DNA from: a virus
Virus record (IMG/VR): IMGVR_UViG_3300033402_000312
Length of the DNA stretch: 37,624 nt
Reading direction: 5' to 3' (one strand)
Position 1 is the stretch's first letter. The number at the start of each line of letters is the position of its first letter. The position numbers and the translations under genes are program-made. A model generated the notes under the pieces. That model searched no databases and was not told where the DNA came from. It was given only the letters and a program-made list of their open reading frames with translations. This document shows, piece after piece, positions 354 through 18,068 of this stretch.

Positions 354-429
354 TGGCTGCCTCGCTAGGATTCGGACCTAGATTTGACGGTTCAGAGCCG
401 TCCGTCCTGCCAAATTAGACGACAAGGCA
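354..429 (-). tRNA. tRNA-Gln(CUG)
   Basis: TGCCTTG/CGAGGCA acceptor, G73, CCA; anticodon arm GACGG-CTCTGAA-CCGTC; atypical T-loop TCCGAAT. Confidence 0.93.
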
Positions 430-433
430 ATTT

Positions 434-510
434 TGGCTGCGGCGCTAGGGGTCGAACCTAGATTCGCGGGTTCAAGGCCCGCCGTCCTGCCTGAGTTAGA
501 CGACGCCGCA
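434..510 (-). tRNA. tRNA-Gln(UUG), C33 variant
   Basis: TGCGGCG/CGCCGCA acceptor, G73, CCA; GCGGG-CCTTGAA-CCCGC; T-loop TTCGACC. Confidence 0.9.
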
Positions 511-515
511 AAGTT

Positions 516-589
516 TGGCTGCCTCCCGTGGATTCGGACCACGATAGCGGGTTCCAAAGACCCGCGCCCTGCCGTTAGACGAGGAGGCA
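516..589 (-). tRNA. tRNA-Gln(UUG)
   Basis: TGCCTCC/GGAGGCA acceptor, G73, CCA; CGGGT-CTTTGGA-ACCCG; T-loop TCCGAAT. Confidence 0.92.
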
Positions 590-594
590 AAAAT

Positions 595-628
595 TGGAGC
601 TAGACTACTTGCTCGAAAACGCTCTAAC
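595..628 (-). ncRNA. degenerate 34-nt tRNA minihelix or tRNA-Thr remnant
   Basis: GTTAGA-N18-TCTAGC-T-CCA: a 6-bp acceptor-like stem with U73 and CCA. It is spaced like an array member and is the same length as the minihelices at 1923-1993. Confidence 0.35.
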
Positions 629-671
629 TACCCAAAAAAGTGAACTTTCAAGTCCATAAGTGAGGTACCTC

Positions 672-1373
672 ATGGACTACACATGCGCTCAATGCGAGCG
701 AACCTTTACTCCGAATCAGCCTCCAACTCACCCAGAAAATCCGATATGCAGCCGTTCATGCGCTGCAAAGTATATGCACAGAACTGGACGAGCTACATAT
801 CTGCCTAAAAAAGTATACGAATGCTTTTGGTGCCACAAAAACTTTAATGGGCATCCATACAACAAAGAACATCCGTTTTGTTCCCACTCCTGTGCGGCTA
901 CCTACAACAATAAAGCCAAAGGGGGGACTCTAAATAAACCTAACAAAGACCCCCATTGTTACCGTGGAGAAAAGACCCTGTGCTGTAAGACATGTAAGGC
1001 ACCTTCTTATGCCCAGTTTTGCTCTCACAAATGCCAGCATGAGTGGTCGCGTCAACAAAAGATAAAACATTGGCTCCAAACAGGAGAAACAGGCTGCAAA
1101 CCCGGTGGTAGCGGCAGCACCATACCCAGATGGCTCAGAGACTACATCAAAGCCGAACAGCAAGGGCTATGTGCCATTTGTCGCCTGCCGTCTGAATGGA
1201 ACGGACAATTTCTTACTCTCATTCTCGATCACATCGACGGTAACTCTTTCATCTCCTCCCGTGATAATCTCCGGTTGGTGTGCCCGAACTGCGATAGCCA
1301 ACTGCCCACCTCCAAAGGTCGCAACCGAGGCAAAGGTCGTCATTGGAGACACGTGCGTTATGCAGCAGGATAA
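672..1373 (+). CDS. HNH homing endonuclease with N-terminal Zn-ribbon repeats
   Basis: Repeated CxxC...FCSxxC modules; C-terminal CAIC...LDHIDGN...NLRLVCPNCDS HNH motif; GAGGT SD before ATG 672; lower GC; antisense inside the tRNA array. Confidence 0.9.
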   Translation: MDYTCAQCERTFTPNQPPTHPENPICSRSCAAKYMHRTGRATYLPKKVYECFWCHKNFNGHPYNKEHPFCSHSCAATYNNKAKGGTLNKPNKDPHCYRGEKTLCCKTCKAPSYAQFCSHKCQHEWSRQQKIKHWLQTGETGCKPGGSGSTIPRWLRDYIKAEQQGLCAICRLPSEWNGQFLTLILDHIDGNSFISSRDNLRLVCPNCDSQLPTSKGRNRGKGRHWRHVRYAAG

Positions 1374-1375
1374 AA

Positions 1376-1459
1376 TGGGCTGATGGGGAGACTCGAACTC
1401 CCGTGGGATTTCTCCGCCTGATTACAAATCAGGTGCAATCGCCGCTATGCGACATCAGC
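1376..1459 (-). tRNA. tRNA-Thr(UGU) with long variable arm
   Basis: GCTGATG/CATCAGC acceptor; CCTGA-TTTGTAA-TCAGG; 14-nt variable region with GGA-GAAA-TCC hairpin; T-loop TTCGAGT. Confidence 0.88.
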
Positions 1460-1466
1460 ATAATTT

Positions 1467-1541
1467 TGGAGCAAGGCATCGGGGTCGAACCGATATAGCG
1501 TGCTTACCGAGCACGTGAACTGCCTGTTGTTCTAGCCTTGC
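1467..1541 (-). tRNA. tRNA-Thr(GGU), C33 variant
   Basis: GCAAGGC/GCCTTGC acceptor, U73, CCA; CGTGC-TCGGTAA-GCACG; T-loop TTCGACC. Confidence 0.9.
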
Positions 1542-1547
1542 CGATTC

Positions 1548-1623
1548 TGGAGCCGGGTAGGAGCTATGATCTCCTCGCCTCCTGCTTACGGGGCAGGCGC
1601 TCTACCGAATGAGCTAACCCGGC
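1548..1623 (-). tRNA. tRNA-Thr(CGU), C33 and atypical T-loop
   Basis: GCCGGGT/ACCCGGC acceptor, U73, CCA; CCTGC-CCCGTAA-GCAGG; T-arm AGGAG-ATCATAG-CTCCT. Confidence 0.88.
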
Positions 1624-1631
1624 GAAAAAAT

Positions 1632-1706
1632 TGGTCCCCAAGGGAGGGGTTGAGCCTCCGTTTCACGCTTATCGGGCGTGCGTCTTAGCCGTTAGACGAC
1701 TCGGGG
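1632..1706 (-). tRNA. tRNA-Ile(GAU), C33 and atypical T-loop
   Basis: CCCCGAG/CTTGGGG acceptor (C4-G69), A73, CCA; CACGC-CCGATAA-GCGTG; T-loop CTCAACC. Confidence 0.88.
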
Positions 1707-1720
1707 AAAATCCTAGCCTG

Positions 1721-1757
1721 AAAACAAAAAGAGCCGACCTCTTCCGGGGTCGGCTCT
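1721..1757 (-). terminator. intrinsic terminator (attenuator) directly upstream of the tRNA array
   Basis: AGAGCCGACC-ccggaaga-GGTCGGCTCT followed by TTTTGTTTT. Confidence 0.9.
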
Positions 1758-1825
1758 CGCTAGCGTCCTGAAATTGCTGGGCTTGCTTAGTCTTCGAAGC
1801 CCTCAGACACGCCAACGGACCGACC
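1748..1825 (-). promoter_or_regulatory. antiterminator hairpin, mutually exclusive with the terminator
   Basis: GGTCGG-TC pairs with GAGCCGACC (terminator 5' arm). The helix continues with CGTTGGCGT/ACGCTAGCG, TCTGA/TCAGG and GGGCTT/AAGCCC. Confidence 0.8.
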
Positions 1826-1876
1826 GCGTGTAATTCGTTGCGTCGTCGTAGTTCGCGTTGTGGGTGTCTGGTTCAT
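1787..1876 (-). CDS. attenuator leader peptide MNQTPTTRTTTTQRITRGRSVGVSEGFED (29 aa)
   Basis: 8 Thr, 2 Gln and 1 Ile codon in the first 16 codons; its 3' half forms the antiterminator. Confidence 0.8.
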   Translation of the reverse strand: MNQTPTTRTTTTQRITRGRSVGVSEGFED

Positions 1877-1885
1877 GATCTTTTT

Positions 1886-1920
1886 TGGCTGGGGGCCTCC
1901 GGTTTCCCGAAAAGCCCCCA
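1886..1920 (-). ncRNA. tRNA-Gln-like minihelix (35 nt)
   Basis: TGGGGGC-[TTTTCGG-GAAA-CCGGAG]-GCCCCCA-G-CCA; U1-A72, G2-C71, G3-C70, G73. Confidence 0.75.
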
Positions 1921-1922
1921 AC

Positions 1923-1956
1923 TGGAGCCGGGACTCGGATTTCGCCGAACCCCGGC
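1923..1956 (-). ncRNA. tRNA-Thr-like minihelix (34 nt)
   Basis: GCCGGGG-TTCGG-CGAAAT-CCGAG-TCCCGGC-T-CCA; 7+5 bp; G1-C72, C2-G71, U73. Confidence 0.75.
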
Positions 1957-1959
1957 GTA

Positions 1960-1993
1960 TGGCGGGCAGACACGGATTTCGCCGTACCTGCCC
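1960..1993 (-). ncRNA. tRNA minihelix (34 nt), Ile- or Arg-like acceptor
   Basis: GGGCAGG-TACGG-CGAAAT-CCGTG-TCTGCCC-G-CCA; 7+5 bp. Confidence 0.72.
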
Positions 1994-2004
1994 ACTCATC
2001 TACA

Positions 2005-2033
2005 ATACTACTGAAAGTCCAGAAACTTGTCAA
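2005..2033 (-). promoter_or_regulatory. sigma70-type promoter of the minihelix/leader/tRNA operon
   Basis: TTGACA-17 nt-TAGTAT; predicted +1 near 1998, about 5 nt before the first minihelix. Confidence 0.75.
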
Positions 2034-2052
2034 GAGAATTGTTTGCCGCTTT

Positions 2053-2265
2053 TCAGGCGACTGCGGCTACGACCACGACGTTTTCGGCCTGGAGACCCTT
2101 CGGGCCCTTCACGACGTCAAACTTGACGGACTGCCCCTCGTCGAGGGACTTGTATCCGTCAGCCTGGATAGCCGAGAAATGCACGAAGACGTCCTCGCCG
2201 GACTGGCGGGTGATGAATCCGTAGCCCTTTGCTGCGTTGAACCACTTTACGGTGCCTTGTTCCAT
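2053..2265 (-). CDS. cspA: cold-shock protein (CspA family, 70 aa)
   Basis: [18 protein letters not shown] (RNP1) and DVFVHFSAI (RNP2); AAAGGA SD before ATG 2265. Confidence 0.95.
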
Positions 2266-2352
2266 TGTTGTTTCCTTTGATTGGATTGCTGAGAGAGATT
2301 CCTTGCGGGAGGGGTTGAGCCTACAGCTAGAGATCGTTTCCACAGCCACTAC

Positions 2353-2382
2353 ATCATAGCACCGCGAAGTCGGGAAAGTCAA
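2353..2382 (-). promoter_or_regulatory. sigma70-type promoter for csp
   Basis: TTGACT-18 nt-TATGAT with extended -10 TG; about 80-nt 5' UTR. Confidence 0.65.
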
Positions 2383-2399
2383 GCCCTATTTAACGGCCG

Positions 2400-3089
2400 T
2401 CAGTTCCACTTGATCTGATCTTCGTCTTTTCGAGCCGGGGCTGGACGGCTCGGCCCTACCGCTGGAGCCTCCGAGAAGATCAGTTCGGGGTCGTCGTTCT
2501 CGCTCAGTATTTTGTCAACGCCGCTCGTGACCGCGTCGAACAGGGGGTCTTGGCCCGGCTCCGGGGGGTTGAAGGGGTCGCCCTCATCGGTTTCCGCGAA
2601 CATCGCCCCGCCCGCGACCACCGAGTCTATCTCGTCGGTGATGCCGAACCCCGACCTGAGGTCGTCCTCAAGGTCGGACAAGGCCTCGGAAAGCTCGCTG
2701 CGCGTGATCGCGATCCTGTTCGACGCCTCCACGATGGGCTTGAGTTGCGCCTGGATGTCGGCGGACAGGGCATCAAACTTGGCGTTCGTCGCCACCCTGA
2801 AGCGGCTGACGATGTCGCGGATGACCAGGATCATCTCGGTCTTCCTGCTGGCTTCGGTGGCACGCGACTTGCGCGTCTTCTCGTCGTTGCACACGGGGCA
2901 GGTCGTGAACATCTCGTCGGCGGGACTTTGGTTGGCTTGGTTGGCTTGATAAGCCTCTTCCACGCCCTCTACCAAGGCAGGCGGTAATGTCCCAACCTTC
3001 TCCGGGCTGATGGAGGTGGCGTATTTCGCCCGCGCCCGCTTGTTGGCGGTGTTGTTCTTGAACTTGATTTTCTTGCTGCTTTTGCCCAT
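2400..3089 (-). CDS. hypothetical protein (229 aa; basic N-terminus, CxxC, coiled coil, acidic tail)
   Basis: GAGGTG SD before ATG 3089 (MGKSSKK). The longer track ORF overlaps the AlaRS-like gene. Confidence 0.75.
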   Translation of the reverse strand: MGKSSKKIKFKNNTANKRARAKYATSISPEKVGTLPPALVEGVEEAYQANQANQSPADEMFTTCPVCNDEKTRKSRATEASRKTEMILVIRDIVSRFRVATNAKFDALSADIQAQLKPIVEASNRIAITRSELSEALSDLEDDLRSGFGITDEIDSVVAGGAMFAETDEGDPFNPPEPGQDPLFDAVTSGVDKILSENDDPELIFSEAPAVGPSRPAPARKDEDQIKWN

Positions 3090-3115
3090 GCGGCACCTCG
3101 CCCATACCTTAATAC

Positions 3116-3970
3116 TCACGATTTCAATAAAACCAGTTCTTCGGGCAAAAGACCGAAAGTGTCCCACCAGAACTCGGGAGGCTTGTCGCCGTTGCGCCGG
3201 AAATGCCTGCGTCCATTGCGGATGGACTGCTCCATGCGCTTGCGCTCCTCCCCCACCCAGACCGAGAACGGGCACTCGAATTCCTGCGGGTTCAAACGCA
3301 TGAACCGGCGAAGAAGGCGGCGGCAGACGTAGCTCCGCCCCTTGTTGCCCGGCTCAACGCCCCGCTCCCTGAACACGCACAGCGTGCGGAAATGGTCGCG
3401 GGACACCGGGTCGAGGTCTTGGCGGAACAGGCTGGTCTCGTCCACGCGGCCCTTGCCCTCCATGGTCTGGAGCATGCGTTCGTAGCCGAAGCCCACGTCC
3501 ACGGAGTGCCCCATCGGGTTGACGAGGTTGCCGACCTCCAGGCCGCCCGGCGTGAAAAACTCGGAGCACCAGCCGCCCACGGTGCCGTCCGACCACACAC
3601 AGTCCGGGTCGCGGCGCACCGGGAATTCCCTCTCCCAATAGCGCTCGAAGCCCGACTCCGGGTGGACGCTGACGTGCGAGACCGGGATGCCGAGGTCGCA
3701 GATGATGTCCGTCCACATATCGCAATGGCGCTGGTAGTCGTTGGTGCCGAAGCCGAAGCTGCCGACCATCTGGAAGAAGGTCAAATGCGTGCCGTCGCCG
3801 ACCTCGCCGATGTCGTTCGTGCGGACGCAGTACTGGATGTTGCCGTGGCTGGTGCCGTCCGGCGTCTGGAATCTTGGCTTGAGTGGCTGCATCCCCGCGC
3901 TGATGAAGAGGGTCGTTGGATCGTTCTCGGGGATTATGTTGGTGCTTAGTTCAAAGGGGAGACCCGTCAT
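3116..3970 (-). CDS. alaS: truncated alanyl-tRNA synthetase (catalytic and partial tRNA-recognition domains; no editing or C-Ala domains)
   Basis: AlaRS motifs DPTTLFISAGMQ, QYCVRTNDI..VGDGTHLTFFQMVGSF, VDVGFGYERM, DHFRT...GVEPGNKGRSYVCRRLLRR; only 284 aa. Confidence 0.88.
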   Translation of the reverse strand: MTGLPFELSTNIIPENDPTTLFISAGMQPLKPRFQTPDGTSHGNIQYCVRTNDIGEVGDGTHLTFFQMVGSFGFGTNDYQRHCDMWTDIICDLGIPVSHVSVHPESGFERYWEREFPVRRDPDCVWSDGTVGGWCSEFFTPGGLEVGNLVNPMGHSVDVGFGYERMLQTMEGKGRVDETSLFRQDLDPVSRDHFRTLCVFRERGVEPGNKGRSYVCRRLLRRFMRLNPQEFECPFSVWVGEERKRMEQSIRNGRRHFRRNGDKPPEFWWDTFGLLPEELVLLKS

Positions 3971-4144
3971 TCACAAACTCGAACCGTGTTAAAGGCAAAC
4001 GGACCATGGGAAGCGCAGGGGTCGGCGGCCGCCGACCCCCACATGGCTCAATCAGCGCTCAATCCCAACCTCACGGAAGCACTCACGTGAGCTTCTGCCT
4101 CCCGACTCTTGGCGGGATATGTTGCCTGATATATCGCCAATTCC

Positions 4145-4172
4145 ATAATACCACCATGCGCGGCTTTTGCAA
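4145..4172 (-). promoter_or_regulatory. putative promoter for the AlaRS-like gene with a ~170-nt structured leader
   Basis: TTGCAA-16 nt-TATTAT with extended -10 TG. Confidence 0.5.
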
Positions 4173-4187
4173 CATGAGGCCGTCGTC

Positions 4188-4430
4188 TTATTCGTAATGC
4201 GCCCCCGTGGGCCGCCCGCGAATGGCCCGCCAAAAAGCCACGCTGTAAGCGAGGGGGAACGCATCTTCCTTATTGTATGCAGCCTGCGTTGTCCCGTTTG
4301 CATTCTTCTGGACGTTGAAGCGCGGGGCACCCTTGCGCACTTGCCATATCGTCTTCCCCGTGGCGAGCGCCTTGATGATCATCCAACAGCGCCACATCCG
4401 CACGCTGAAGGGAGCGGGATTTGGATTCAT
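4188..4430 (-). CDS. hypothetical protein (80 aa)
   Basis: ORF just downstream of the suppressor tRNAs; ATG 4430 chosen so it does not overlap the tRNA. Confidence 0.6.
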   Translation of the reverse strand: MNPNPAPFSVRMWRCWMIIKALATGKTIWQVRKGAPRFNVQKNANGTTQAAYNKEDAFPLAYSVAFWRAIRGRPTGAHYE

Positions 4431-4457
4431 ACTGAATATTTCAATATCCCGCAAACT

Positions 4458-4531
4458 TGGCACCCCCGATGGGATTTTTACCCATACACACGACTTTAGA
4501 GGTCGCTGCTCTTCCGTTGAGCTACGGGGGT
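4458..4531 (-). tRNA. amber suppressor tRNA(CUA) #1, Trp/Gln-like body
   Basis: ACCCCCG/CGGGGGT acceptor (A1-U72), G73, CCA; GCGAC-CTCTAAA-GTCGT; T-loop TAAAAAT. Confidence 0.88.
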
Positions 4532-4558
4532 AAACTTGTTCTTAAAAATACTAAAGAT

Positions 4559-4635
4559 TGGAGCGCCCGGTGGGGATCGAACCCACGCAGCACAAGGCTT
4601 TAGGGGCCCCGGCTCTGCCGCTGAGCTACGGGCGC
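4559..4635 (-). tRNA. amber suppressor tRNA(CUA) #2, C33
   Basis: GCGCCCG/CGGGCGC acceptor, U73, CCA; GGGGC-CCCTAAA-GCCTT; T-loop TTCGATC; TATACT -10-like box just upstream. Confidence 0.85.
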
Positions 4636-4709
4636 ACGCCGTCAGTATACAGCCTCTCCTTCCGGGATGGCTACCGCTAGCCTTCCCTGTCTAAGATAGC
4701 ACCCTTTGC

Positions 4710-5171
4710 TTACCCAAACCGTTGTTTCAGTTCAAGATATATCCTTTTGTCGCGCTCTTCATCCGCCTTCTTTTCCTCGGCAGCCGCAGCCGCTTTCTTT
4801 TCGGCTTTCTTCTGCTTTGCCTTGAAATAGCGGTCGAGATGCTTCTGTACCTCTTTCGCAATCGCTTCGTCGAGCGCATCGTCCTCAAGCTCAAGCAAGT
4901 GCGACGGGAAGCTCTGCTCGTACGTCGCGTACTCCGGGTGGCAGTGGCAAGCGCCATTGTACTCGTACGAAAGCGTGAACTGGCTTTCGTCGAACGACTC
5001 CAGCTTGTCGAAATCCCTGTGTGTTCGGATTCCGGTCGTCCGGGTGAAGTCCGTGATCTTGAGTCGCTGAAGCTCCTCTTCGAGGGCTTGGTTATAGCGA
5101 CTCGCAACCGCAAACGCTTGCTGGTGAACCCACTGGTACGCCTCTGCCGCTTCCTTAACGCTCTATGTCAT
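4710..5171 (-). CDS. hypothetical protein with in-frame amber at codon 3 (153 aa on read-through); likely paralog of 6128-6577
   Basis: GGAGG SD, then ATG ACA TAG AGC GTT AAG, then an open frame with no ATG/GTG/TTG for 88 codons that joins track ORF 4710-4898. Its C-terminus RIYLELKQRFG resembles QRYLELKSKYEG. Confidence 0.78.
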
Positions 5172-5364
5172 TGTCTTCCTCCTCGGCCCCGCAATCGCAT
5201 TCTCCCCATTCAGTTTTTGTGGCGGAGCACTCTTCTGAATGAAACTCGTGATCCAAAGCTGCCTCGGCTAAGGTTCTCGGTGTGTCCCACCCCTCCGCGA
5301 TCCGCCGCAGGATGCCCCTGTAGTACCTGATCTTTCTTTCGGCGGTCGGCTCAAATCTCTTCAT
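5155..5364 (-). CDS. hypothetical protein (69 aa; H-x3-C...CDC metal-binding motif)
   Basis: Overlaps both neighbours in operon fashion. Confidence 0.7.
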   Translation of the reverse strand: MKRFEPTAERKIRYYRGILRRIAEGWDTPRTLAEAALDHEFHSEECSATKTEWGECDCGAEEEDNDIER

Positions 5365-5983
5365 CGGGTTCCCCCTTTCGCTTGACGCCCCAGCCGCCGC
5401 GCCAGTAGACCTCCAGCATGTCGTCCCACATCGCCTCGCGGCGGTCGTTCCAGCTTGCCTGCCATTCGTAGCCGTCCTTGTCCTTTTTCGGCGGCAAGTC
5501 CTTCACCGGGTCCTTGGGGCTGAGACCGAGCTTCTCGTAGGCATGATCCGAGGCGCGGCGGCAATCGTCGCCGCCGGGGCGAATCCTGTCCGCCTGCTTC
5601 TTGACCCAGCGGTGGAAGGCGTCCATCTCGACCCTCAGTTCCACGTCGCGGGCAGCCTGCCGGGTCGCGTCGTCGGACTCGCGGTAGCGGTCGGCGCAGC
5701 CAAAGAGACCGCCGTAGTCGATCTCGGCGTCAGGGTTGTCCCACAGGACGTCGGTGATGCTCATCGGCGAGATCACGACCTTGTAGCCATTGGAGACATA
5801 CTTGCCGCCCACCACGTCGAAGTAGGGCTTCCTCGCGGGGTCGCGCACCAGCAGTTGCAGCCGCCCGTCGTAGTACGCAGGCTCGGTCGCCACGGCGAAG
5901 ATGTCGATGTTCTCGACGCAGGCCTCAAGCTCGCCGCTCGGGTCTGCCTCTTGCAGTCTTTGGATCAAATCCTTGGTTTTCAT
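5351..5983 (-). CDS. hypothetical phage protein (210 aa)
   Basis: GGAGG SD; MKTKDLIQRLQEADP-type N-terminus; GC3-rich codons. Confidence 0.85.
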   Translation of the reverse strand: MKTKDLIQRLQEADPSGELEACVENIDIFAVATEPAYYDGRLQLLVRDPARKPYFDVVGGKYVSNGYKVVISPMSITDVLWDNPDAEIDYGGLFGCADRYRESDDATRQAARDVELRVEMDAFHRWVKKQADRIRPGGDDCRRASDHAYEKLGLSPKDPVKDLPPKKDKDGYEWQASWNDRREAMWDDMLEVYWRGGWGVKRKGEPDEEI

Positions 5984-6114
5984 TCGTAGTCCTCCGGTGT
6001 CAAAAGCCTATCATACCCCTCGTGGAACTCCCACCACCCCGAGCACGGGCCGTCGATGTGCAAGACCCGCCACAGTCGAGCAGGGCGTTCCAGTGCCAGA
6101 TTCCTTCCATCCAT
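5980..6114 (-). CDS. small hypothetical protein (44 aa)
   Basis: MDGRNLALERPARLWRVLHIDGPCSGWWEFHEGYDRLLTPEDYE fills the gap; its stop overlaps the next ATG (ATGA). Below the track cutoff. Confidence 0.4.
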   Translation of the reverse strand: MDGRNLALERPARLWRVLHIDGPCSGWWEFHEGYDRLLTPEDYE

Positions 6115-6127
6115 GCGCAGGAAGCCA

Positions 6128-6577
6128 TCACGCCGCCCCCTCGTATTTTGACTTCAGTTCGAGGTAGCGCTGGCGCTCGGCTTCCCCCGCTTTGCGCTCC
6201 TTCTCGGCTTCCTCCACCGCCTTGCGCTCAAGGCGCTGGCGCTCGTGCTCGTCGTACGCCTTTTTCTGCGCCTCGATCCAGCCGTCGATGTCGTCGAGCC
6301 AGCCGTTGGGGATGACGATGGAAAGGTAATCGTACTCGTCGCCGCCGCAATACTTGCGTCCCCTGAGCGTGGTGCCGTCCGCCTCGAACTCGTAGGCCTC
6401 GTCCCAGCTTGGCCTGAACTCGTAGCCGGTGCGCGGCACCCACTTGACCCCGCCGTCCTCGCACATCTCCTCCCGGAGAAGCCCGGCGTTCTGGGCTTTC
6501 GCGAAGATTTCCCGCATGGTCTCGTGGAACTGCCCCTGCAACTGCTGAAGCTGCTTGCCCATCTCGCTGATTGTCAT
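6128..6577 (-). CDS. hypothetical protein (149 aa, charged C-terminal helix)
   Basis: AGGAG SD; ATG 6577 overlaps the upstream TGA (ATGA). Confidence 0.8.
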   Translation of the reverse strand: MTISEMGKQLQQLQGQFHETMREIFAKAQNAGLLREEMCEDGGVKWVPRTGYEFRPSWDEAYEFEADGTTLRGRKYCGGDEYDYLSIVIPNGWLDDIDGWIEAQKKAYDEHERQRLERKAVEEAEKERKAGEAERQRYLELKSKYEGAA

Positions 6578-6972
6578 TGTAGCTCTCCTGTCGAAGCAAA
6601 ATTTGCCTGCATGGGCGCAATGGACGCTTGTATTGACGCGTTCGGCTCTTGCCAAAGGCGGTAGTTCGACAGGGCGCGGCGCTGGTGCTGTTCAAGCGGG
6701 ACGGTGGCCACGGCGGACAGGCCCATGTCGAAGTCCGGCTCGTAGAACACCTGGTGGGCGATGTCGTTGGAGCGGAGCTTCTCGACGACGCGGAAAAGCG
6801 CCGCCTTGTCGGGCACGCCTATGACGATGCACGACGGGGTTTCGTCAAGATTTCGGGGTTGCGGCAGACGGCGGGCGACCTCGAAGGTCGCGTGGTTGGA
6901 CTGGACAAGCTGCTGGGCTGCGGTGAGGTCGGTCCTTACGAACACATAAAAATAAGAGTGAACCTATTGCAT
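6574..6972 (-). CDS. PTH2-like peptidyl-tRNA hydrolase with in-frame amber at codon 3 (132 aa on read-through)
   Basis: YFYVFVRTDL...QQLVQSNHA...IVIGVPD...FYEPD...LSAVA follows the PTH2-fold pattern. AGGAGG/AAGGA precede ATG CAA TAG GTT CAC TCT TAT TTT TAT GTG. Confidence 0.78.
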
Positions 6973-7001
6973 GTCCTTTTGAGCCTCCTAGCTCAATACT
7001 G

Positions 7002-7175
7002 CTATAAGCCTCTGAGCAGGCATTTGAAAGTCAAGTTTGTCGGCGGACTTAGCCCTTTCTCTGGTGGTCTGGGAATTCGTCTTGGCCCAAAATAGGGCCT
7101 AAGATAGAGATCGTAGAACACAAGCAACATCGTCGCAAGTGCCATACCCGCCAGAAACCACCCTAGAGCACTCAT
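7002..7175 (-). CDS. small single-pass membrane protein (57 aa)
   Basis: Hydrophobic MSALGWFLAGMALATMLLVFY; ends in TAG. Confidence 0.6.
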   Translation of the reverse strand: MSALGWFLAGMALATMLLVFYDLYLRPYFGPRRIPRPPEKGLSPPTNLTFKCLLRGL

Positions 7176-7199
7176 GCAGTTCCCCCGCAACACAGTCGC

Positions 7200-7228
7200 A
7201 TTGTCCCATAAACCAAGGGTCTTGTCAA
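7200..7228 (-). promoter_or_regulatory. sigma70-type promoter for the operon containing both amber-gated genes
   Basis: TTGACA-17 nt-GACAAT with extended -10 TG. Confidence 0.55.
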
Positions 7229-7461
7229 GTCCGTTTTCTCGGACGCGGCGACCGCTTCTTCGGGAACAGCACCCGTATCTTCACGTCCATCGGCGTCTCC
7301 CGAACAAGCGGCACCTCGACCGCGAAGTAGCCGTCGAGCGCCGTCAATGCCGAGACCCTTTCCTTCCCGATGCGGACGGAAATCTCCTCGCAGGACACCG
7401 CCGCCCCGTTGTTGTCAACCATGAAGCCGCTGATAACGAATTTCATCCGTGCTGTTGGCAT
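7225..7461 (-). CDS. hypothetical protein (78 aa)
   Basis: AAGGAG SD before ATG 7461 (MPTARMKF); beta-rich pattern. Confidence 0.65.
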   Translation of the reverse strand: MPTARMKFVISGFMVDNNGAAVSCEEISVRIGKERVSALTALDGYFAVEVPLVRETPMDVKIRVLFPKKRSPRPRKRT

Positions 7462-7483
7462 GCATTTCTCCTTGGGATCATCA

Positions 7484-7780
7484 AGGCCCCAGGCGCGGAG
7501 TTCCGTCATTGTCACCGCGCCTCAGGGGATTTTCCGGCGCTCATCCTCAACCTGTTCCCGGAATCAAGGCGGGCCTATTCCTATTTCGACCCAGTCGCGC
7601 CGCTATCCCCGTGGTTAGGAACGTCCGGGCAGCGGGGTCGTTTCCCCTTCAAGGCACGCAAAAGCGGGTTTTACGCCGCCTCTCCTTGCGATGCCCTGGC
7701 ACGCCCGGCTAAGTCAAGCCACCCACGAGACTATTTTTGTCGGAACCGAAGACGCCTGCTGCTCGTGGCCACTGGGGCCT
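7484..7780 (-). ncRNA. candidate ~297-nt structured RNA, family unrecognised
   Basis: No credible ORF; 9-bp closing helix AGGCCCCAG/CTGGGGCCT enclosing several internal helices. Confidence 0.5.
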
Positions 7781-7794
7781 AGACATAGGATACA

Positions 7795-8001
7795 TCATTT
7801 GTGCCTAAACTGGTCTTCGTATTTTTTCAGCACATCCGGTGGCAGCACGACGGGATGGCAGTCGGTTGGCGCTCCGGTGCTTGTGATCGAGTTGCAGACG
7901 TAAGGCTCCTGTGGGGACTGTTGCTGTTCCCAAGACGCGAACATCCATAAGCCAGTCCACACAACGAGGAACACAATAAGAGGCATCAGCACCTTCCACA
8001 T
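7795..8001 (-). CDS. small membrane-anchored protein (68 aa; start uncertain)
   Basis: Hydrophobic MWKVLMPLIVFLVVWTGLWMF, then a Cys pair. The frame is open upstream to the TGA at 8107. Confidence 0.6.
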   Translation of the reverse strand: MWKVLMPLIVFLVVWTGLWMFASWEQQQSPQEPYVCNSITSTGAPTDCHPVVLPPDVLKKYEDQFRHK

Positions 8002-8106
8002 CGGAATGTCCCCGTGCGGCTCGTGGCAATAGCATTTGCAGCCAGCGGCTATGCAGGCCTTTCTCCCGCGCAACGCGCTCCTCGCGCCTGCGCCGTGCGC
8101 CCGCCC

Positions 8107-8343
8107 TCATGACCCCGAACACGGAAACCTCCCCGTGGCGCGTTTCCATTGGTCGTTGGCTTCTCCCCAGATGACCAGTTCAGCCGTGGTTGCCCCCTTG
8201 GGCCCGCCCTTAGCTGTCAGCCTCTTGACGGCATTTTCCAGTCTCCTGCCGTGGTAGGAGTAATGCTTCCCGGCGTAGTCAAACTCCATCAGCATGACGG
8301 CGAGCGTCCCGGCGAACGTGATGCGGTAAGTTTCATCGCCCAT
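8107..8343 (-). CDS. hypothetical protein (78 aa; possible TGA read-through)
   Basis: ORF after the tmRNA terminator; ends CSGS-TGA in frame with a Cys-rich stretch. Confidence 0.65.
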   Translation of the reverse strand: MGDETYRITFAGTLAVMLMEFDYAGKHYSYHGRRLENAVKRLTAKGGPKGATTAELVIWGEANDQWKRATGRFPCSGS

Positions 8344-8361
8344 GCCCTATGATACTGCCAG

Positions 8362-8388
8362 AAACAAAAAACCCCGCCGACGCGGGGT
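8362..8388 (-). terminator. intrinsic terminator of the tmRNA gene
   Basis: ACCCCGC-GTCG-GCGGGGT followed by TTTTTGTTT. Confidence 0.88.
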
Positions 8389-8651
8389 CTTTTGCGGTGT
8401 TGAGGATCAGTCCCACCAAGGACTGTGCGTGCAGCTTTTTAGGCCGCAGCCGCAAATGCCATCTCACGAGGAGCGGCAGTTATAGTTTCCATCCTGATTA
8501 ACGAGGGCATGGTGCCTCGGGTCGCTGGCTCCGTCCTCGCATGTCCGCCGTCGAAACCAGTTCACCCCCGAAGTGGTGGAGGTGGGGGGAGTTGGACCCC
8601 CGTCCGAGCAGACTGTCTGGTGCCTTTTGCCCTCGCGGGCTTACGACCATC
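8389..8651 (-). ncRNA. ssrA: circularly permuted (two-piece) tmRNA
   Basis: Acceptor piece first (...GGACGGGGGTCCAACTCCCCCCACCTCCACCA, ending 8574), a 4-nt spacer CTTC, then the coding piece from 8569 (GGGGGTGAACTGGTTTCGACGG). G3:U70 and A73 present. ATAACT-GCC resume context; tag AAPREMAFAAAA* at 8439-8477. Confidence 0.92.
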
Positions 8652-8657
8652 CTACAC

Positions 8658-8687
8658 ATAATACCACGGAAGTCGGTTATCTGTCAA
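8658..8687 (-). promoter_or_regulatory. sigma70-type promoter of tmRNA
   Basis: TTGACA-18 nt-TATTAT with extended -10 TG. Confidence 0.75.
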
Positions 8688-10927: not shown

Positions 10928-11650
10928 TTACATGTTCCTCCTGTTCCGCATCAATTCGACTGCGGCTTTTATTTTTTCGGGGTTGTTCGCCGCCCATGCT
11001 TTGGCTTTTTTGCGGAGTTTTTGGCGTGTCTCCTCAGAACACTCCCTACCCCAAAGGGAAAAAGCTACCTTTTTGGCTATTTCAGGGTTTTGCATGTGGT
11101 GACGCCCCTCAGCAGCTAATTGTTTTAAGCTATCTGATTGTTTCTGTTTTGATTCTACTGAACGCTTATGCCCTATGTGGGCTACTTTGGATGCCGCAAA
11201 TGCGGCATCAGATGGACGCTTACCCTTACGCATAGCACTAAATTTTTCTTGCATCTTTGGGTCTTGCATAGGATTTAATCCAAGGGCAGACCTACGCAAA
11301 TGTGCTTCACTCATCTTCTTTCGGGTTTCAGGATGGACGTTTTTGGCCCTTCCACCAGACTCCAAATTATAGCCTACGCTTGGATCGGTGGCTTTAAGCT
11401 GCTTAATAAACATCTTTTCCCAGTAGTTGGCTTGATCTCTTGAAGATGCTCGTATCAAAACAGATGTTTTGAACGCTTTAGGGCTATACTTGCGGATGGC
11501 AGCGTGAAAATGCGGGCATTTTCCCTGCTTCAAATTGAATGCAGCAGAACAATGAAGTCTCCAGCGATGCTTCAAAGTGAGACTCGTTTGCCCTATATAA
11601 TATTTGTTGTTAACTGTATTTACTACTATATAAATGAGGGTTTCGCCCAT
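10928..11650 (-). CDS. GIY-YIG homing endonuclease (Seg-like, NUMOD3 repeats; 240 aa)
   Basis: LIYIVVNTVNNKYYIGQT, GYNL, HPETRKKMSEAH; AT-rich; ATG overlaps the upstream TGA. Confidence 0.9.
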   Translation of the reverse strand: MGETLIYIVVNTVNNKYYIGQTSLTLKHRWRLHCSAAFNLKQGKCPHFHAAIRKYSPKAFKTSVLIRASSRDQANYWEKMFIKQLKATDPSVGYNLESGGRAKNVHPETRKKMSEAHLRRSALGLNPMQDPKMQEKFSAMRKGKRPSDAAFAASKVAHIGHKRSVESKQKQSDSLKQLAAEGRHHMQNPEIAKKVAFSLWGRECSEETRQKLRKKAKAWAANNPEKIKAAVELMRNRRNM

Positions 11651-11895
11651 CAGCCCAGCCGCTTCATGGGGCATCCGAATTTGTGCGGAAAGGGGGTTTC
11701 GTGAATGTTGGCCACCCTGCCGCACTTGCCGCACTTGAACGCAAAGTCGCCGTCCTCGCCGTCCACCACCTCGTAGGCGAAGCCCATCAGGGCATCTTGG
11801 TTGCCGCGCTTGATTTCGGCGATCTCCTCCGGGGTGAATTCGTCGTCGAGACCATCCTCGTACTGCTCGTCAAAATCATCGAAATCGATAGCCAT
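11650..11895 (-). CDS. small acidic Zn-binding protein (81 aa)
   Basis: GAGGTG SD before MAIDFDD; CGKC...H...C. Confidence 0.75.
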   Translation of the reverse strand: MAIDFDDFDEQYEDGLDDEFTPEEIAEIKRGNQDALMGFAYEVVDGEDGDFAFKCGKCGRVANIHETPFPHKFGCPMKRLG

Positions 11896-11984: not shown

Positions 11985-12641
11985 TCAGAATGACAAAATC
12001 CAAGAAAAAATTATGTCAACTCCGGCAGGAAGTATCAGCGGAGGCAGCGTCTTGTAGTTCACGAGTACCACCGAATCCGCCGGGCCGGGAGGCGTCGCGG
12101 CGGGGTTGAAGTACGGCGCGGTCACCATGTTCGTCGGCTGCCCGCCAGCGCCCGCCAGCGTGCCGCCGCCGATGAGTCCCATCTCCCGGATGCTCTGGGT
12201 GATGTTGTCGGTGGTGGCGTTGACCGTGGTCTGGAAGTCCACCATTGTGCTGAACTGGTTCACCGGATTGAAGTTGGCATCGACGTAGTTGATGCGCGAA
12301 AGGGGCTTGCGCAGGAACTCGGAGATGAGCGCGGTCTGGATCGGGGAAGGGTCGGGCTGCGTCTCCGGTGCCCAGCTAGGCGAGCCAGCGCCGATTGCCA
12401 AGCCCCATATGCCGTACAGCGGGTCTGCCGACACGCCTGCCTCGCCGAGGGTGTAGGGGACAGCCGGGGCGTTCGGGAGGGCGTTCGCGCAAAGCCTCGC
12501 GAACAGCCAGCGGACGACGTTGGTGATTATATTTTTCTGTTGAAACAAAACCTCTCCGGTGTCAGACCGAAATATTCGGAGATACCCTGTGTCAATAGGC
12601 AATGTCTGCGTGTAAAATCCATCCCTAAAGTTAAGTTGCAT
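11985..12641 (-). CDS. putative baseplate/tail-fibre attachment protein (218 aa)
   Basis: NIITN...LAIGAG...QTALISE.RKP...IREMGLIGG...NYKT pattern resembles myovirus tail-collar/baseplate proteins; position at the end of the baseplate cluster. Confidence 0.65.
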   Translation of the reverse strand: MQLNFRDGFYTQTLPIDTGYLRIFRSDTGEVLFQQKNIITNVVRWLFARLCANALPNAPAVPYTLGEAGVSADPLYGIWGLAIGAGSPSWAPETQPDPSPIQTALISEFLRKPLSRINYVDANFNPVNQFSTMVDFQTTVNATTDNITQSIREMGLIGGGTLAGAGGQPTNMVTAPYFNPAATPPGPADSVVLVNYKTLPPLILPAGVDIIFSWILSF

Positions 12642-13326
12642 TAGAGCCTCTGTTTTGTCTTTGTAAAGCTGCTTTTTTAAGATTCGCCTTCAAAATAGCA
12701 AAGCACTCCGGTCGCTGGGCACGAAGTTTCGCAGCAACACTTAAATTCCGTTTGTGCTTGTCTGAAAATACCCGACCTTTTAGTGCTTGGGACAGCTTCG
12801 GTACTTTCTTTCCAAGTTTCGCAGCAGAAATCCGTTGCCTAGTTTCAAGCGTAGGTTTTTTACCTTTGTGAGCCTTGGATAACAATGCACGGGTTTCAGC
12901 GGTGGCTTTTTTGCCCAGATGCGCTTTCCGATTTTTTTGATTTGATTCATTCGAATGATGACGACCGAACATCGGATGCGCTGCTCCATGAAGGGCTTTT
13001 TCACCGTAACGTGGGTTAAGTTTTCCGGGGGACGCTCCATCGCCGCCCAACGTCATGTTGTAACCGTTTTCCGGCTTGTGAGACTGGTGCAGGACAATAA
13101 AGAAAGTCTCCATCGCATCAAGTTCATCCTTGGTTTTGGCTTGATGAATTACCTCGACCCTAAAGGCATCTGGCCCGTATTTGCGAATAGCATTAGAGAG
13201 GTACAACTTGCTGCCTTTACTTGCGGCATGAACATGCGCTTTCCAACGATCTTCTACCCTAGCCCGCATCCACTTACCGATGTAGACTTTGCCGTTCACC
13301 GAATTTGTGACTTTGTACACGACCAT
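12631..13326 (-). CDS. GIY-YIG homing endonuclease (NUMOD3 repeats; 231 aa)
   Basis: VVYKVTNSVNGKVYIGK, GYNMTLGGDG, HPMFGRHHS; AT-rich. Confidence 0.9.
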   Translation of the reverse strand: MVVYKVTNSVNGKVYIGKWMRARVEDRWKAHVHAASKGSKLYLSNAIRKYGPDAFRVEVIHQAKTKDELDAMETFFIVLHQSHKPENGYNMTLGGDGASPGKLNPRYGEKALHGAAHPMFGRHHSNESNQKNRKAHLGKKATAETRALLSKAHKGKKPTLETRQRISAAKLGKKVPKLSQALKGRVFSDKHKRNLSVAAKLRAQRPECFAILKANLKKAALQRQNRGSNAT

Positions 13327-14800: not shown

Positions 14801-17269
14801 TTAGTAAAGCCCGAAAATGAACAACTCGTCGCCACCGGACAGTTCCCAAACTTGATCCAACCTTGGGGCCACAAGACCGTACAGGTGGCTCGGGTCAACG
14901 TTTCCGACCTCCCCGGTCGGGGGCGGCGGGGTGATTCCGGTCCCCAAGTTCAGGATTTGCACCCAGCCAGCCGGGGCGCTGAACGTGTTAGCGCCGATGT
15001 TGCGCCATGCCACGTTGCCGTCAGGAGTGCCGCCGTTGAGCGACAAATTCCAGCTTGGCTTGGAGTTCTGCGACACGCCAGCGTTCAGCGCAAGCTGCTG
15101 GTTGCCGTTCGGGTCCACCACGATCTGGCCGAGGAACACCGTTCCGCCCGGAACCCAGCTTGATCCGATGGCTATGCTGGAAAGGTTGCTGTTGATCGGC
15201 GGGTTCCCGAGCACATAGACGCCGTTGCTGAGGTAATAGGCGGACTGGAGCGTCGGCGAAAGCATGCCAGCATTGGCTTGAATGCTGGGCGTCTGGATCG
15301 CCACGTCAGCGGTGTTCGTGACTTGGAACGTGGACACCTCGGCGGTGCCGGAGTCAAATGGGTTAGAAAAATCCGTCCCGGCGAAATTCGCCGTGAAGCT
15401 GGTGGGCGTCGCCGAAAGTACAACCAAAGTCTGCCCATTCAGGAACGGCTCGGCTGTGTTGGCAAACGTTACCAGCATGCCGGGCTTGAAACTGTTTGCC
15501 GTTGTCACGGTAAGGACGTTTGAACTGAGTTGGGTCGCCCGCACGTTGGCGACGATGTTGTGCACGTCATGGATCGGGGCGGTGACGTTGAGTGCAGCCG
15601 CGCTGAATCCCGCGACGGTGACATACTCGCCCTCATGGAGGAACTGTGTCGTCGGCACGTAGGTGTACGTGGCGTTCGTGCCGTCCGACATGCCGTTGAG
15701 GATGTTGACAAACACGGTCGGGAGCGCCTGCCACTGCGAAGGCGTAAGCTGGGCGGAAAGCTTCCTGCCGTACGCCGCGACGGTCGTCTTTGGGTTCGCG
15801 GGATTGAGCGGGATCGGGTTGCCTTGCCCGTCCTTCGCCACGGTGCCGTCCGCGTTGAGCTTGAAGTTGGAGAGGGGGGCGATCCACAGCATGGGCCCAT
15901 ATGGCGGCTGCTCTATTTGCTGCACGAAGATGCGCAGCGTGTCCGTCATGCCTGACGGCACGGAGTCGCAAGGCACGCAGCAAAGGTTCGTGTAAAGCTG
16001 CTGGTAAAGCGCACGCCATGCCGAGTTGAGAGCGTTGAACTGAACGGTAGTAATGTCAGCAGGCAGGCCGAACGTCGCCGTTCCTGTGGCTTCCGCCTGC
16101 GCTGGGTAGTTCGGGTGCGCAAAGCTTGCCGTGAACGAGTTGCCTGACACGGAAGTCACCGTGAGGGGCACGCCGTTCAGGAACGTCGAGACCCCAAGGT
16201 TGATGAGCGTGACAACCGTGCCAGCCGACAGCGGGACGGCAAAGCTGAGGTTGACCGTAAGCGTGTTGAACGACACGGAGGTGCTTACCACAGCCGGGGA
16301 AACCCCAGTCCACGTCAATTGATTGTCTCCGGTTGCGGCTCCGACCAGGTTGCCGTGCGCATCCAAAACCGCGCCAACGGTGCTCCACGGCGGCTGCACG
16401 ATGCCGCTGGTATTGGGGTACATGCCGATGCCGGTCACGATTTGGAAGTTGCCGTTGGAGTCCCGCAGCAGGCTGCCCAGCGGGTACACGGTGGTCTTCT
16501 TCCAGTACAATGCCGGGTTGATAGCCGTGTATCCCGTGAATTGGAAGAAAGCCTGCTCATAGGCCGGGAGCAGCGCGAACTGCTGCTGCGTCACGTTCTG
16601 CGGGCTGACTATGCACTGCAAGTCCTCGCCCTCGCCGAAGACCGTCGTGAACTCAAGCCCGACGTGCGCTGGCTTGGCGAGCGCGATGGCGTTGTAGAGG
16701 CTCTGGACGATGGTCTGAAGCTGGAGCAGCGAGGTGATCGTCGTCAGGGGGTTCGACCCCGCCCCGCCGACCTGCACGGCCACGCTGATCGCGTTGCGGT
16801 CGGACTGGTCGTAGACTCCGTTCCCGATCAGCTTGTAAAGCTCCACGACGTTGACGGAAATCCCCGTGTACGCAAGGATGACGTCGTGGATCGCCTTGAC
16901 AGTCGTCCCCTCTTGGTACGCGGAAATAAGCTCGACGAGCATCTGCTTGTACTGCGTGTCGAACTGCCCCAGCGCGGGCCAGTTGGACGAGATGTACAGC
17001 GGCGCTGCCCAGCGGCGACGGATGTCCGGGGGCGTCAGCAGGCTCGGGTCTTTGTTGACGAGGTCGTAGGAGTAGTCGTAGTCCAGCTTTGCAAGCTCGA
17101 TTGCCAGCGCCCTGACGAAGTTTCCCCAGATGCTTTGGTCGTTGCGTGTTGAGTAAAAATCCGCGACCGCCTGTAGTAAACTGTTCAGCCGGGCGTCTTC
17201 GTACCTCAACAGCGATTCACGGTTACGAAGGTATAGAAGGTCTGGGTTATTGTTGGGCGCACTAGCCAT
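14801..17269 (-). CDS. baseplate wedge/tail protein (P2 gpI-like N-terminus plus beta-repeat domains; 822 aa)
   Basis: YKQMLVELISAYQEGTT.KAI..VI..YTG and LAKPAHV motifs; follows the gpJ-like gene; start MASAPNN. Confidence 0.7.
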   Translation of the reverse strand: MASAPNNNPDLLYLRNRESLLRYEDARLNSLLQAVADFYSTRNDQSIWGNFVRALAIELAKLDYDYSYDLVNKDPSLLTPPDIRRRWAAPLYISSNWPALGQFDTQYKQMLVELISAYQEGTTVKAIHDVILAYTGISVNVVELYKLIGNGVYDQSDRNAISVAVQVGGAGSNPLTTITSLLQLQTIVQSLYNAIALAKPAHVGLEFTTVFGEGEDLQCIVSPQNVTQQQFALLPAYEQAFFQFTGYTAINPALYWKKTTVYPLGSLLRDSNGNFQIVTGIGMYPNTSGIVQPPWSTVGAVLDAHGNLVGAATGDNQLTWTGVSPAVVSTSVSFNTLTVNLSFAVPLSAGTVVTLINLGVSTFLNGVPLTVTSVSGNSFTASFAHPNYPAQAEATGTATFGLPADITTVQFNALNSAWRALYQQLYTNLCCVPCDSVPSGMTDTLRIFVQQIEQPPYGPMLWIAPLSNFKLNADGTVAKDGQGNPIPLNPANPKTTVAAYGRKLSAQLTPSQWQALPTVFVNILNGMSDGTNATYTYVPTTQFLHEGEYVTVAGFSAAALNVTAPIHDVHNIVANVRATQLSSNVLTVTTANSFKPGMLVTFANTAEPFLNGQTLVVLSATPTSFTANFAGTDFSNPFDSGTAEVSTFQVTNTADVAIQTPSIQANAGMLSPTLQSAYYLSNGVYVLGNPPINSNLSSIAIGSSWVPGGTVFLGQIVVDPNGNQQLALNAGVSQNSKPSWNLSLNGGTPDGNVAWRNIGANTFSAPAGWVQILNLGTGITPPPPTGEVGNVDPSHLYGLVAPRLDQVWELSGGDELFIFGLY

Positions 17270-18068
17270 TGGACGTCCTCTTTGCCAGTCGGCACTCAAC
17301 CATGTAACGGATGTGTTCCGCAGAGACACCACGCTTTTTGGCAGCTTCGCTCATGCGCTTCTTGGTCTCTTCGGTGCGCTTTTTGCCCCTCAGAGCGATG
17401 GAGCGTTTTTGCAATGTTTCAGCGGATGGATGTCTGCCGGTAAGAGCTTCGCTCATCTTTCTACGGGATTCTTCAGAATGCCTTCTGCCAAAAAACGGAT
17501 TGGATTTCCCGGCTATTGCTTTTCTAACCGACTCGCTGATTTTCTTCTTGACATCTTCCGTCACATGTTTTCCCAACATGTGACGGGAGGAACGTTCGCT
17601 ACGTATTTGGCGTTCTTCCTCTGACTGTTTTCGACCGAGATTATATTGGTTACCTACGTGAACTCGTGTACGCTGAAACACAATTTTCGGGTCTTGTTTC
17701 TTACCTAATTTAGCAACACGCATTTTCATTCGGTCTTCTAAACTACGCTTTTTTCCGCGCCAATAATCAGCACCCTCTCCGCCCGATGTTAGGTTGTAGC
17801 CAAATTGATGGTCATTAGCTCTGTATTTGGTGATGTAAAATTTTTCTTGAGCAGAAAGGTCTTCTTTAGAAGATGCGTAACCAGATAAAAGACAAATTTC
17901 AAAGGCGTTCCTTCCGTGCATTCGTATAGCATTGTACAAATATGGGCAATAGTTCTTGCCCGCAAGAGCGAACTTAAAATGCTCATTTTCCCGTAGCCCA
18001 AAACGGCGAAAACTTTTGCCGACGTAAATCTTACCGTCCAGCTTGTTAACAATGGTGTAAATGTGCAT
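17262..18068 (-). CDS. GIY-YIG homing endonuclease (NUMOD3 repeats; 268 aa)
   Basis: HIYTIVNKLDGKIYVGKS, GYNLTSGGEG, NPFFGRRHSEESRRKMS. Confidence 0.9.
   Translation of the reverse strand: MHIYTIVNKLDGKIYVGKSFRRFGLRENEHFKFALAGKNYCPYLYNAIRMHGRNAFEICLLSGYASSKEDLSAQEKFYITKYRANDHQFGYNLTSGGEGADYWRGKKRSLEDRMKMRVAKLGKKQDPKIVFQRTRVHVGNQYNLGRKQSEEERQIRSERSSRHMLGKHVTEDVKKKISESVRKAIAGKSNPFFGRRHSEESRRKMSEALTGRHPSAETLQKRSIALRGKKRTEETKKRMSEAAKKRGVSAEHIRYMVECRLAKRTSNG

Follow-up and report, generated by a model that had tools for sequence, protein, structure and literature searches.

Why phages carry tRNA genes, and why suppressor tRNAs occur in phage genomes that use the standard genetic code, is an open question, and it is raised by a viral DNA of 37,624 nucleotides (IMG/VR record IMGVR_UViG_3300033402_000312; the whole of this stretch is referred to here as the window), in which positions 354 to 8687 hold tRNA arrays, amber suppressor tRNAs, a gene for a protein with a peptidyl-tRNA hydrolase 2 (Pth2) fold, a miniature alanyl-tRNA synthetase (mini-AlaRS), and a permuted transfer-messenger RNA (tmRNA). 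Here the tRNAs appear to come with a sensor of their own shortage and the suppressors with specific targets. We consider it likely that the interval is the translation-support quarter of a giant phage, built from separately promoted modules that would be read by host RNA polymerase and host ribosomes, each module responding to how much of one charged tRNA is available or to stop codon readthrough. Comparison with viral loci of relatives fetched for this purpose (numbered L001, L002, and so on) supports three putative ribosome-read switches, two intact in the window and one found only in relatives; from their anatomy, conservation, and co-variation we infer how they work and that the pressure behind them is the loss of tRNA, through host defense or starvation.

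The first switch would govern the main tRNA array, whose unit runs, from the promoter at 2033, through three minihelices, a leader, a terminator, tRNA-Ile, three tRNA-Thr, and three tRNA-Gln:

2005-2033, minus strand: sigma70-like promoter of the minihelix-leader-tRNA unit, kept in relatives
1886-1993, minus strand: three tandem tRNA minihelices (1993-1960, 1956-1923, and 1920-1886), each with an NCCA end
1787-1876, minus strand: gene for a 29-amino-acid leader peptide, with many codons for Thr (ACA, ACG, ACT), Gln, and Ile
1729-1758, minus strand: putative attenuator terminator hairpin and U tract (regions 3:4)
1632-1706, minus strand: tRNA-Ile(GAU) with C33 and a non-canonical T loop (Rfam, 51 bits; relaxed ARAGORN)
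1377-1623, minus strand: three tRNA-Thr (UGU with a long variable arm; GGU; CGU with C33; ARAGORN)
660-1373, plus strand: HNH homing endonuclease gene, a passenger within the tRNA array (PHROG HNH, E 1e-18; PADLOC HEase)
354-589, minus strand: three tRNA-Gln (CUG, UUG, UUG; ARAGORN) with U1-A72, G73, and encoded CCA

The sensed codons of the leader, which has 8 Thr within its first 16 codons, correspond to the isotypes of the gated tRNAs (Thr, Gln, and Ile), and an antiterminator segment (1825-1819) lies inside the leader gene. The parts of an attenuator are thus present: a leader with a run of regulatory codons, and mutually exclusive antiterminator and terminator structures, region 2 being freed by stalling. 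Leader and terminator were found upstream of the Ile/Thr/Gln array wherever the contig reaches that far, and the leader model matches 15 loci (14 used for building it, plus L032). When a static model folds the transcript as it stands prior to synthesis of region 4, with the ribosome placed on the Thr run, region 3 is paired to codons 16-23 of the leader with a probability of 0.71-1.00 in all 14 leaders; with the ribosome placed at the stop, its upstream pairing has a probability of 0.01-0.51 in the same leaders. Terminator and antiterminator co-vary, the arm GCCGACC occurring with the partner GGTCGG and the arm GCCGCCC with a matching G-rich partner. By its anatomy this is a classic attenuator, in which a shortage of Thr-, Gln-, or Ile-tRNA would stall the ribosome in the leader, favor the antiterminator, and allow the matching phage tRNAs to be transcribed, the upstream minihelices being made regardless. 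The E. coli thr operon is attenuated through thrL, with its Thr and Ile codons; the phage leader resembles that system in its short reading frame with a Thr run, its alternative 2:3 and 3:4 hairpins, and its U-tract terminator but would control tRNA genes, of the isotypes that it senses, instead of biosynthetic enzymes, and is preceded by minihelices.

The minihelices have a fold z score of -6.7, and a perfect 12-bp stem with NCCA is matched twice, whereas 200 shuffles give 0.005 such matches on average. Each of the following loci has one to three of them, placed after the promoter and ahead of the leader: the window, L001, L066, L067, L074, L006, L027, L032, and L033. The minihelices could be processing signals or decoys. 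The acceptor of the second is Thr-type and that of the third Gln-type, a correspondence with the gated tRNAs that counts against regarding the region as an ordinary jumbo-phage tRNA region, in which arrays are insertion hot spots and the switches track host nutrition or timing with no role in defense. That view has in its favor that tRNAs, synthetases, and tmRNA are common in huge phages (PMC7162821), that the leader of the neighboring Csp gene is plainly cspA-like, and that turnover is evident from the HNH insertion, the variable small open reading frames (ORFs), and the deletion at the 5' end of AlaRS; it leaves the switches themselves undisputed, however, and an extra tRNA would cure tRNA loss but not amino acid starvation, so that we hold it to be improbable.

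A defense trigger for the Thr unit is plausible because P2-OLD destroys tRNA-Thr(UGU) and phage tRNA-Thr rescues (PMC12445682). T5 tRNA-Lys acts against PARIS, which cleaves tRNA-Lys (PMC11464382). The window resembles such nuclease-neutralizing tRNA sets in carrying copies of few isotypes, Thr(UGU) among them, and differs in that their expression here is apparently conditional on a ribosome sensor; no tRNA-Lys is carried. The window tRNA-Thr(UGU) (1377-1459) is of type II, with its NCCA not fully encoded. Odd tRNA-like RNAs, with anticodon loops that are odd or missing, occur among the tRNA genes of relatives (L001 11640-11755; L004 12547-12690; L005 11016-11090 and 11411-11486). C33, present in 52 of 568 other phage tRNAs, was dropped as a special feature. 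As for a bacterial source of the Thr leader, 14 GTDB pattern matches turned out not to be leaders, and the leader was not found in 151 genomes sampled from the order of an Acidobacteriaceae metagenome-assembled genome, a search that had no positive control.

The second switch would be an amber gate, formed by suppressor tRNAs and early UAG codons:

6574-6972, minus strand: Pth2-fold gene, with a Shine-Dalgarno (SD) sequence, then ATG-CAA-TAG at 6972, the TAG being codon 3 (6966-6964)
6128-6577, minus strand: orf149, whose start overlaps the stop of the Pth2-like gene (ATGA) and which weakly resembles the second amber ORF
4710-5171, minus strand: second candidate amber-gated ORF (SD, ATG, TAG at codon 3, then 150 codons), no function assigned
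4458-4673, minus strand: two amber suppressor tRNAs (CUA; 4635-4559 and 4531-4458; ARAGORN) with their own promoter

The Pth2-like gene was recovered at 38 distinct viral loci, 30 of which have an in-frame start followed by TAG at codons 3-13; the other eight comprise two with TAG and then ATG, one with TGA, and five without a stop, so that an early TAG is present at 32 of the 38. Of the 30 start-then-TAG loci, 26 have a CUA tRNA within the DNA that was fetched, as does one of the two TAG-then-ATG loci (27/32 together). The locus with TGA (L035, 10001-10580) has it at codon 3 and carries, 500 nt downstream, a UCA tRNA of the same body type, an ordinary body that ARAGORN labels SeC; stop and anticodon have changed together. 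L015 lacks an early stop, its locus contains no CUA tRNA, and none was found in its 58%-complete record by a pattern search, a weak test. Homologs of the second amber ORF (5171-4710) in L002 and L166 also have TAG at codon 3, each directly before CUA tRNAs. Unannotated amber-interrupted Pth2-like ORFs are present in Serratia phage BF (L167 1501; BF 286104), which has an annotated tRNA-Sup 3.5 kb downstream, and in Ralstonia phage RsoM2USA (L170 1501); both are cultured phages, and BF offers the amber gate for study. The Pth2-fold protein and the 153-amino-acid product of the second ORF would be made only when the phage CUA tRNAs outcompete RF1 at the early UAG.

An early UAG could also be the true stop of a minigene of the lambda bar type, with the Pth2-like gene starting downstream, and gene callers do place its start at an internal GTG, while ATG directly follows TAG in L037 and L042. 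Such an internal start would, however, cut into strand beta-1, which spans model residues 4-10. At 33 of 33 loci that bear a stop, the upstream ATG shares its frame with the sequence beyond the stop, and in L035 the stop agrees with the altered anticodon; we regard this explanation, together with its counterpart for AlaRS discussed below, as very unlikely. The readthrough gate that we prefer would operate in a standard-code genome, because TAG terminates 4 of the 30 called ORFs in the window; with ORFs of up to 1787 amino acids left open by table 11, genome-wide TAG recoding (code 15) is ruled out. Stop-recoded phages (TAG = Gln, code 15) carry suppressor tRNAs, and in both cases a phage CUA tRNA would read UAG in phage genes, but here the UAG is confined to one or two neighboring genes and to their first 3-13 codons. 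The tRNAs have ordinary bodies with CUA, unlike tRNA-Pyl with its 6-bp anticodon stem and short D and variable loops, and no PylRS gene lies in the region, so that pyrrolysine tRNA, ARAGORN's name for CUA, is ruled out. The suppressor at 4458-4531 has A1-U72 and G73 (a Trp-like acceptor) and an A-rich non-canonical T loop common to L001 and L002.

The gated protein is predicted to have a Pth2 fold. Its model (pLDDT 86) was placed by Foldseek with the alpha/beta fold of 2ZV3 (E 3e-6; TM score, 0.65/0.74), and the Pfam PTH2 match is 17.6 bits, below the cut-off of 23. The fold is shared with archaeal and eukaryotic Pth2 (2ZV3, 3ERJ, and 1XTY) and a PTRHD1-like subgroup (TM score, 0.62-0.75; 11-22% identity), but the phage protein has Gln in the column of the catalytic Lys and EPD in place of the DAG-T motif, one invariant Asp being kept. 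Work on Sulfolobus solfataricus is said to have identified this Lys and the DAG-x-T motif in Pth2. The initial annotation spoke of an amber-gated PTH2-like hydrolase; the early TAG and the fold stand, but the label "hydrolase" is not established because the canonical catalytic motifs are replaced. Where the second amber ORF would stand ahead of the CUA tRNAs, L001 carries another gene of amber-gated form (2755-3360; TAG at codon 3, 201 codons, phrog_14850, HD-like motif). In Xanthomonas phage XacN1 (L168 970-1809) a longer ORF that lacks an amber codon has the Pth2-like domain as its C-terminal portion.

The third putative switch is seen in relatives; the surroundings of the window's mini-AlaRS gene are as follows:

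4005-4172, minus strand: promoter and conserved structured noncoding RNA (ncRNA) of about 135 nt (4140-4005), matching no Rfam family
3116-3970, minus strand: mini-AlaRS, aminoacylation domain only (PF01411, E 1e-24), truncated at the 5' end, with the junction at 3967-3964
2400-3089, minus strand: orf229, no function assigned, located behind AlaRS in some relatives

The family numbers at least 185 members, most of them with 255-350 amino acids (only near lengths were searched). Residues R50, W126, E145, N148, D158, G162, and R165 are invariant in 39 sequences and represent class II motifs 2 and 3 and the Ala/ATP pocket, and the predicted AlaRS fold retains the helical tRNA-recognition part. 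The PGN and DTFG motifs, present in the window protein and most homologs, may, by motif, be the equivalents of E. coli N303 and D400, the Asn and Asp that read G3.U70. Compared with the N-terminal fragment of bacterial AlaRS (3HXU and 1RIQ), motifs 2 and 3 and the helical recognition part are common to both, but the phage form has about 300 amino acids against about 440 and an out-of-frame start; the editing and C-Ala domains are not in the window ORF, which does not extend beyond the recognition helices (no search was made for longer forms).

In 66 of the 71 relatives with upstream DNA, mini-AlaRS is preceded by a short out-of-frame leader, usually with its ATG behind a clear SD, and the synthetase is encoded one base away, in the -1 frame, which is open into AlaRS from an Ala codon of the leader; the remaining five have ordinary in-frame starts. 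The Ala codon, in all four synonymous forms, is at position 6 in 57 cases and at 4, 5, or 9 in the rest. Bases -4 and -3, where -3 is the first base of the codon before Ala and -4 the base preceding it, are identical in 65 of 66 leaders (GG 34, CC 12, AA 12, and TT 7), against at most 33 of 66 for every other adjacent pair, and on the AlaRS tree 12 and 13 changes are needed for the two positions taken singly and 13 for the pair, with about 12 joint changes. For the P-site tRNA to slip back by one base while the Ala codon stands empty, this identity is needed. The same leader is found in a 635-kb phage (LR745206.1), between tRNA-Ala genes. The relatives thus combine an out-of-frame start, an open -1 frame, and a P-site codon that can re-pair, and their leader is probably a hungry-codon -1 frameshift site, at which the ribosome would wait at the Ala codon near codon 6 while the P-site tRNA slips back one base. 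A second GCN at -7 in 60 of the 66 leaders would be the E-site codon after the slip; one may speculate that uncharged tRNA-Ala is bound there. Doublet decoding of the Ala codon and a 7-nt backward hop both fail to explain the -4/-3 identity and were rejected. Reinitiation at AlaRS, the counterpart of the minigene explanation, would suit the few genes with an in-frame ATG near the leader stop, but most have no in-frame start, and the identity would again be left unexplained.

Like the +1 shifts of RF2 (prfB) and antizyme and the hungry-codon shifts of E. coli (PMC5009743), the AlaRS leader has a short zero frame, a protein in the new frame, and a product that would feed back on the trigger; unlike RF2 and antizyme, the shift would be -1 and at a sense (Ala) codon, and it is absent from the window copy. 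If our reading is true, this would be functional hungry-codon frameshifting, whereas a 2016 review knew of no example that makes a starvation-specific functional protein (PMC5009743).

In the window the initial annotation's mini-AlaRS is indeed present, but as a copy shortened by deletion. The 220 nt upstream of it match the promoter and ncRNA unit that relatives have 5.1 kb (L001) or 1.3 kb (L004) ahead of AlaRS, the join falls within a shared ACGG, and the leader and about 16 N-terminal codons, including the first (motif-1) helix, have been removed. An assembly error was ruled out, an independent ENA assembly and a Logan assembly being the same at the junction, as was a frameshift route in the window's own leader, where a stop closes the -1 frame 8 codons upstream. 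The junction ATG, without a good SD, might still allow a shortened AlaRS to be made. The ncRNA lies just downstream of suppressor tRNAs in four phages (window 4140-4005, L001 4660-4830, L002 13105-13250, and L004 13044-13185), with two-sided change at 11 of 37 predicted pairs in the four sequences.

Whether these modules form one system is a separate matter, which brings in the remaining features:

8348-8687, minus strand: permuted two-piece tmRNA (RF04321, 70 bits against a cut-off of 47) with G3.U70, A73, and its own promoter
5351-5983, minus strand: orf210, no function assigned, the only small ORF widely kept downstream of the Pth2-like gene in the clade
2053-2382, minus strand: Csp gene (2265-2053; PF00313, E 4e-30) with a cspA-like 5' leader and its own promoter

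The initial annotation saw an integrated translation-rescue island, and every part that it named is in place on the minus strand: the attenuated tRNAs, minihelices, Csp, both suppressors, and permuted tmRNA as described, although the second amber ORF, the ncRNA, and the plus-strand HNH gene had been left out. Its notion of sensors built from the ribosome itself also agrees with the comparison of relatives, in the form of attenuator, amber gates, and, outside the window, frameshift gate. The core order of tmRNA, amber Pth2-like gene, orf210, CUA tRNAs, Thr leader, and Ile/Thr/Gln tRNAs is kept in about ten related phages (window, L001/L003, L004, L005, L010, L012, L014, L020, L027, and L033), so that the components are not scattered within the clade; a common order among kin is to be expected. 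A single co-regulated anti-defense island that covers every effect of sabotage, with the small ORFs as anti-defense proteins, would accord with this order, with the neutralization of PARIS and P2-OLD by phage tRNAs, and with an alanine-identity tmRNA near an AlaRS gene. Against it, six sigma70-like promoters stand on the minus strand (8687, 7228, 4673, 4172, 2382, and 2033; the scan gave 7 in 10 kb against 2.7 in shuffles), which makes the region a row of transcription units; AlaRS, Csp, minihelices, and ncRNA are optional within the clade, AlaRS being absent from the interval in most core-order phages and truncated here; and modules occur alone in distant phages: L036-L046 and L054 have the Pth2-like gene with CUA tRNA by itself, and L056-L064, L134, and L140 have AlaRS by itself, often next to tRNA-Ala genes. 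The amber module is mainly self-referential, a tRNA with private targets, and by itself repairs no termination defects, although loss of RF1 would also raise readthrough, and the gate could in that way report termination failure. The small ORFs at 4188-8343 as anti-defense factors were a guess; seven have no match in any other fetched phage locus, none has a PADLOC or PHROG match, and Pfam and ESM Atlas gave nothing useful. The region is real and unusual, and its integrated anti-defense reading is possible but unproven; we judge it unlikely. A bolder reading, which we hold to be less likely than not, is an inducible counter-defense in which a panel of ribosome-read sensors would respond to failing termination or to the loss of specific charged tRNAs by turning on exactly the remedy required, including natural hungry-codon -1 frameshifting for the synthetase and anticodon-less minihelices as decoys for acceptor-end toxins.

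Several points weigh against our preferred account of separately promoted, ribosome-switched modules. In equilibrium folding the terminator always wins, the support for attenuation coming from the static model; the window tRNA-Thr(UGU) retains the paired CUG/CAG stem motif reportedly cut by P2-OLD (PMC12445682); the window AlaRS, its switch lost, is unable to show frameshifting; the relatives share ancestry, so that locus counts overstate independence; and the evidence consists of sequence and folding comparisons. Huge phages likewise combine tRNAs, synthetases, and tmRNA in large genomes, in a survey whose main text does not mention suppressors or peptidyl-tRNA hydrolase (PMC7162821). A literature search that most subscription journals lay outside found no paper on a phage Pth2 behind an amber gate, on phage tRNA genes under attenuation, or on frameshifting into a phage AlaRS, and the three switches look unpublished; gene callers miss or truncate all these genes.

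The tmRNA, a known permuted form (PMC11915505), has an intact tag ending in four Ala (ARAGORN), alanine identity, and CCA. Csp is ordinary and present only in some relatives; positions 2300-2350, considered as a tRNA remnant, are its cspA-like leader, conserved in L001. The protein is 69% identical to an Acidobacteriaceae protein and equally to a Nocardioides protein, which singles out no host. The DNA is that of a phage, with long minus-strand structural genes, one matching baseplate-wedge, following the region, and the ENA and Logan assemblies carry the same genes; close relatives lie on contigs of 170-463 kb. A JGI contig with P0231/P0232, which bears the window's Csp, measures 894,233 bp, almost exactly twice a related 447-kb contig, which would fit either an assembly doubled in length or a very large phage. 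Three GIY-YIG-type homing endonuclease-like ORFs lie among the structural genes (10928-11734, 12631-13326, and 17262-18068), two with Pfam GIY-YIG matches.

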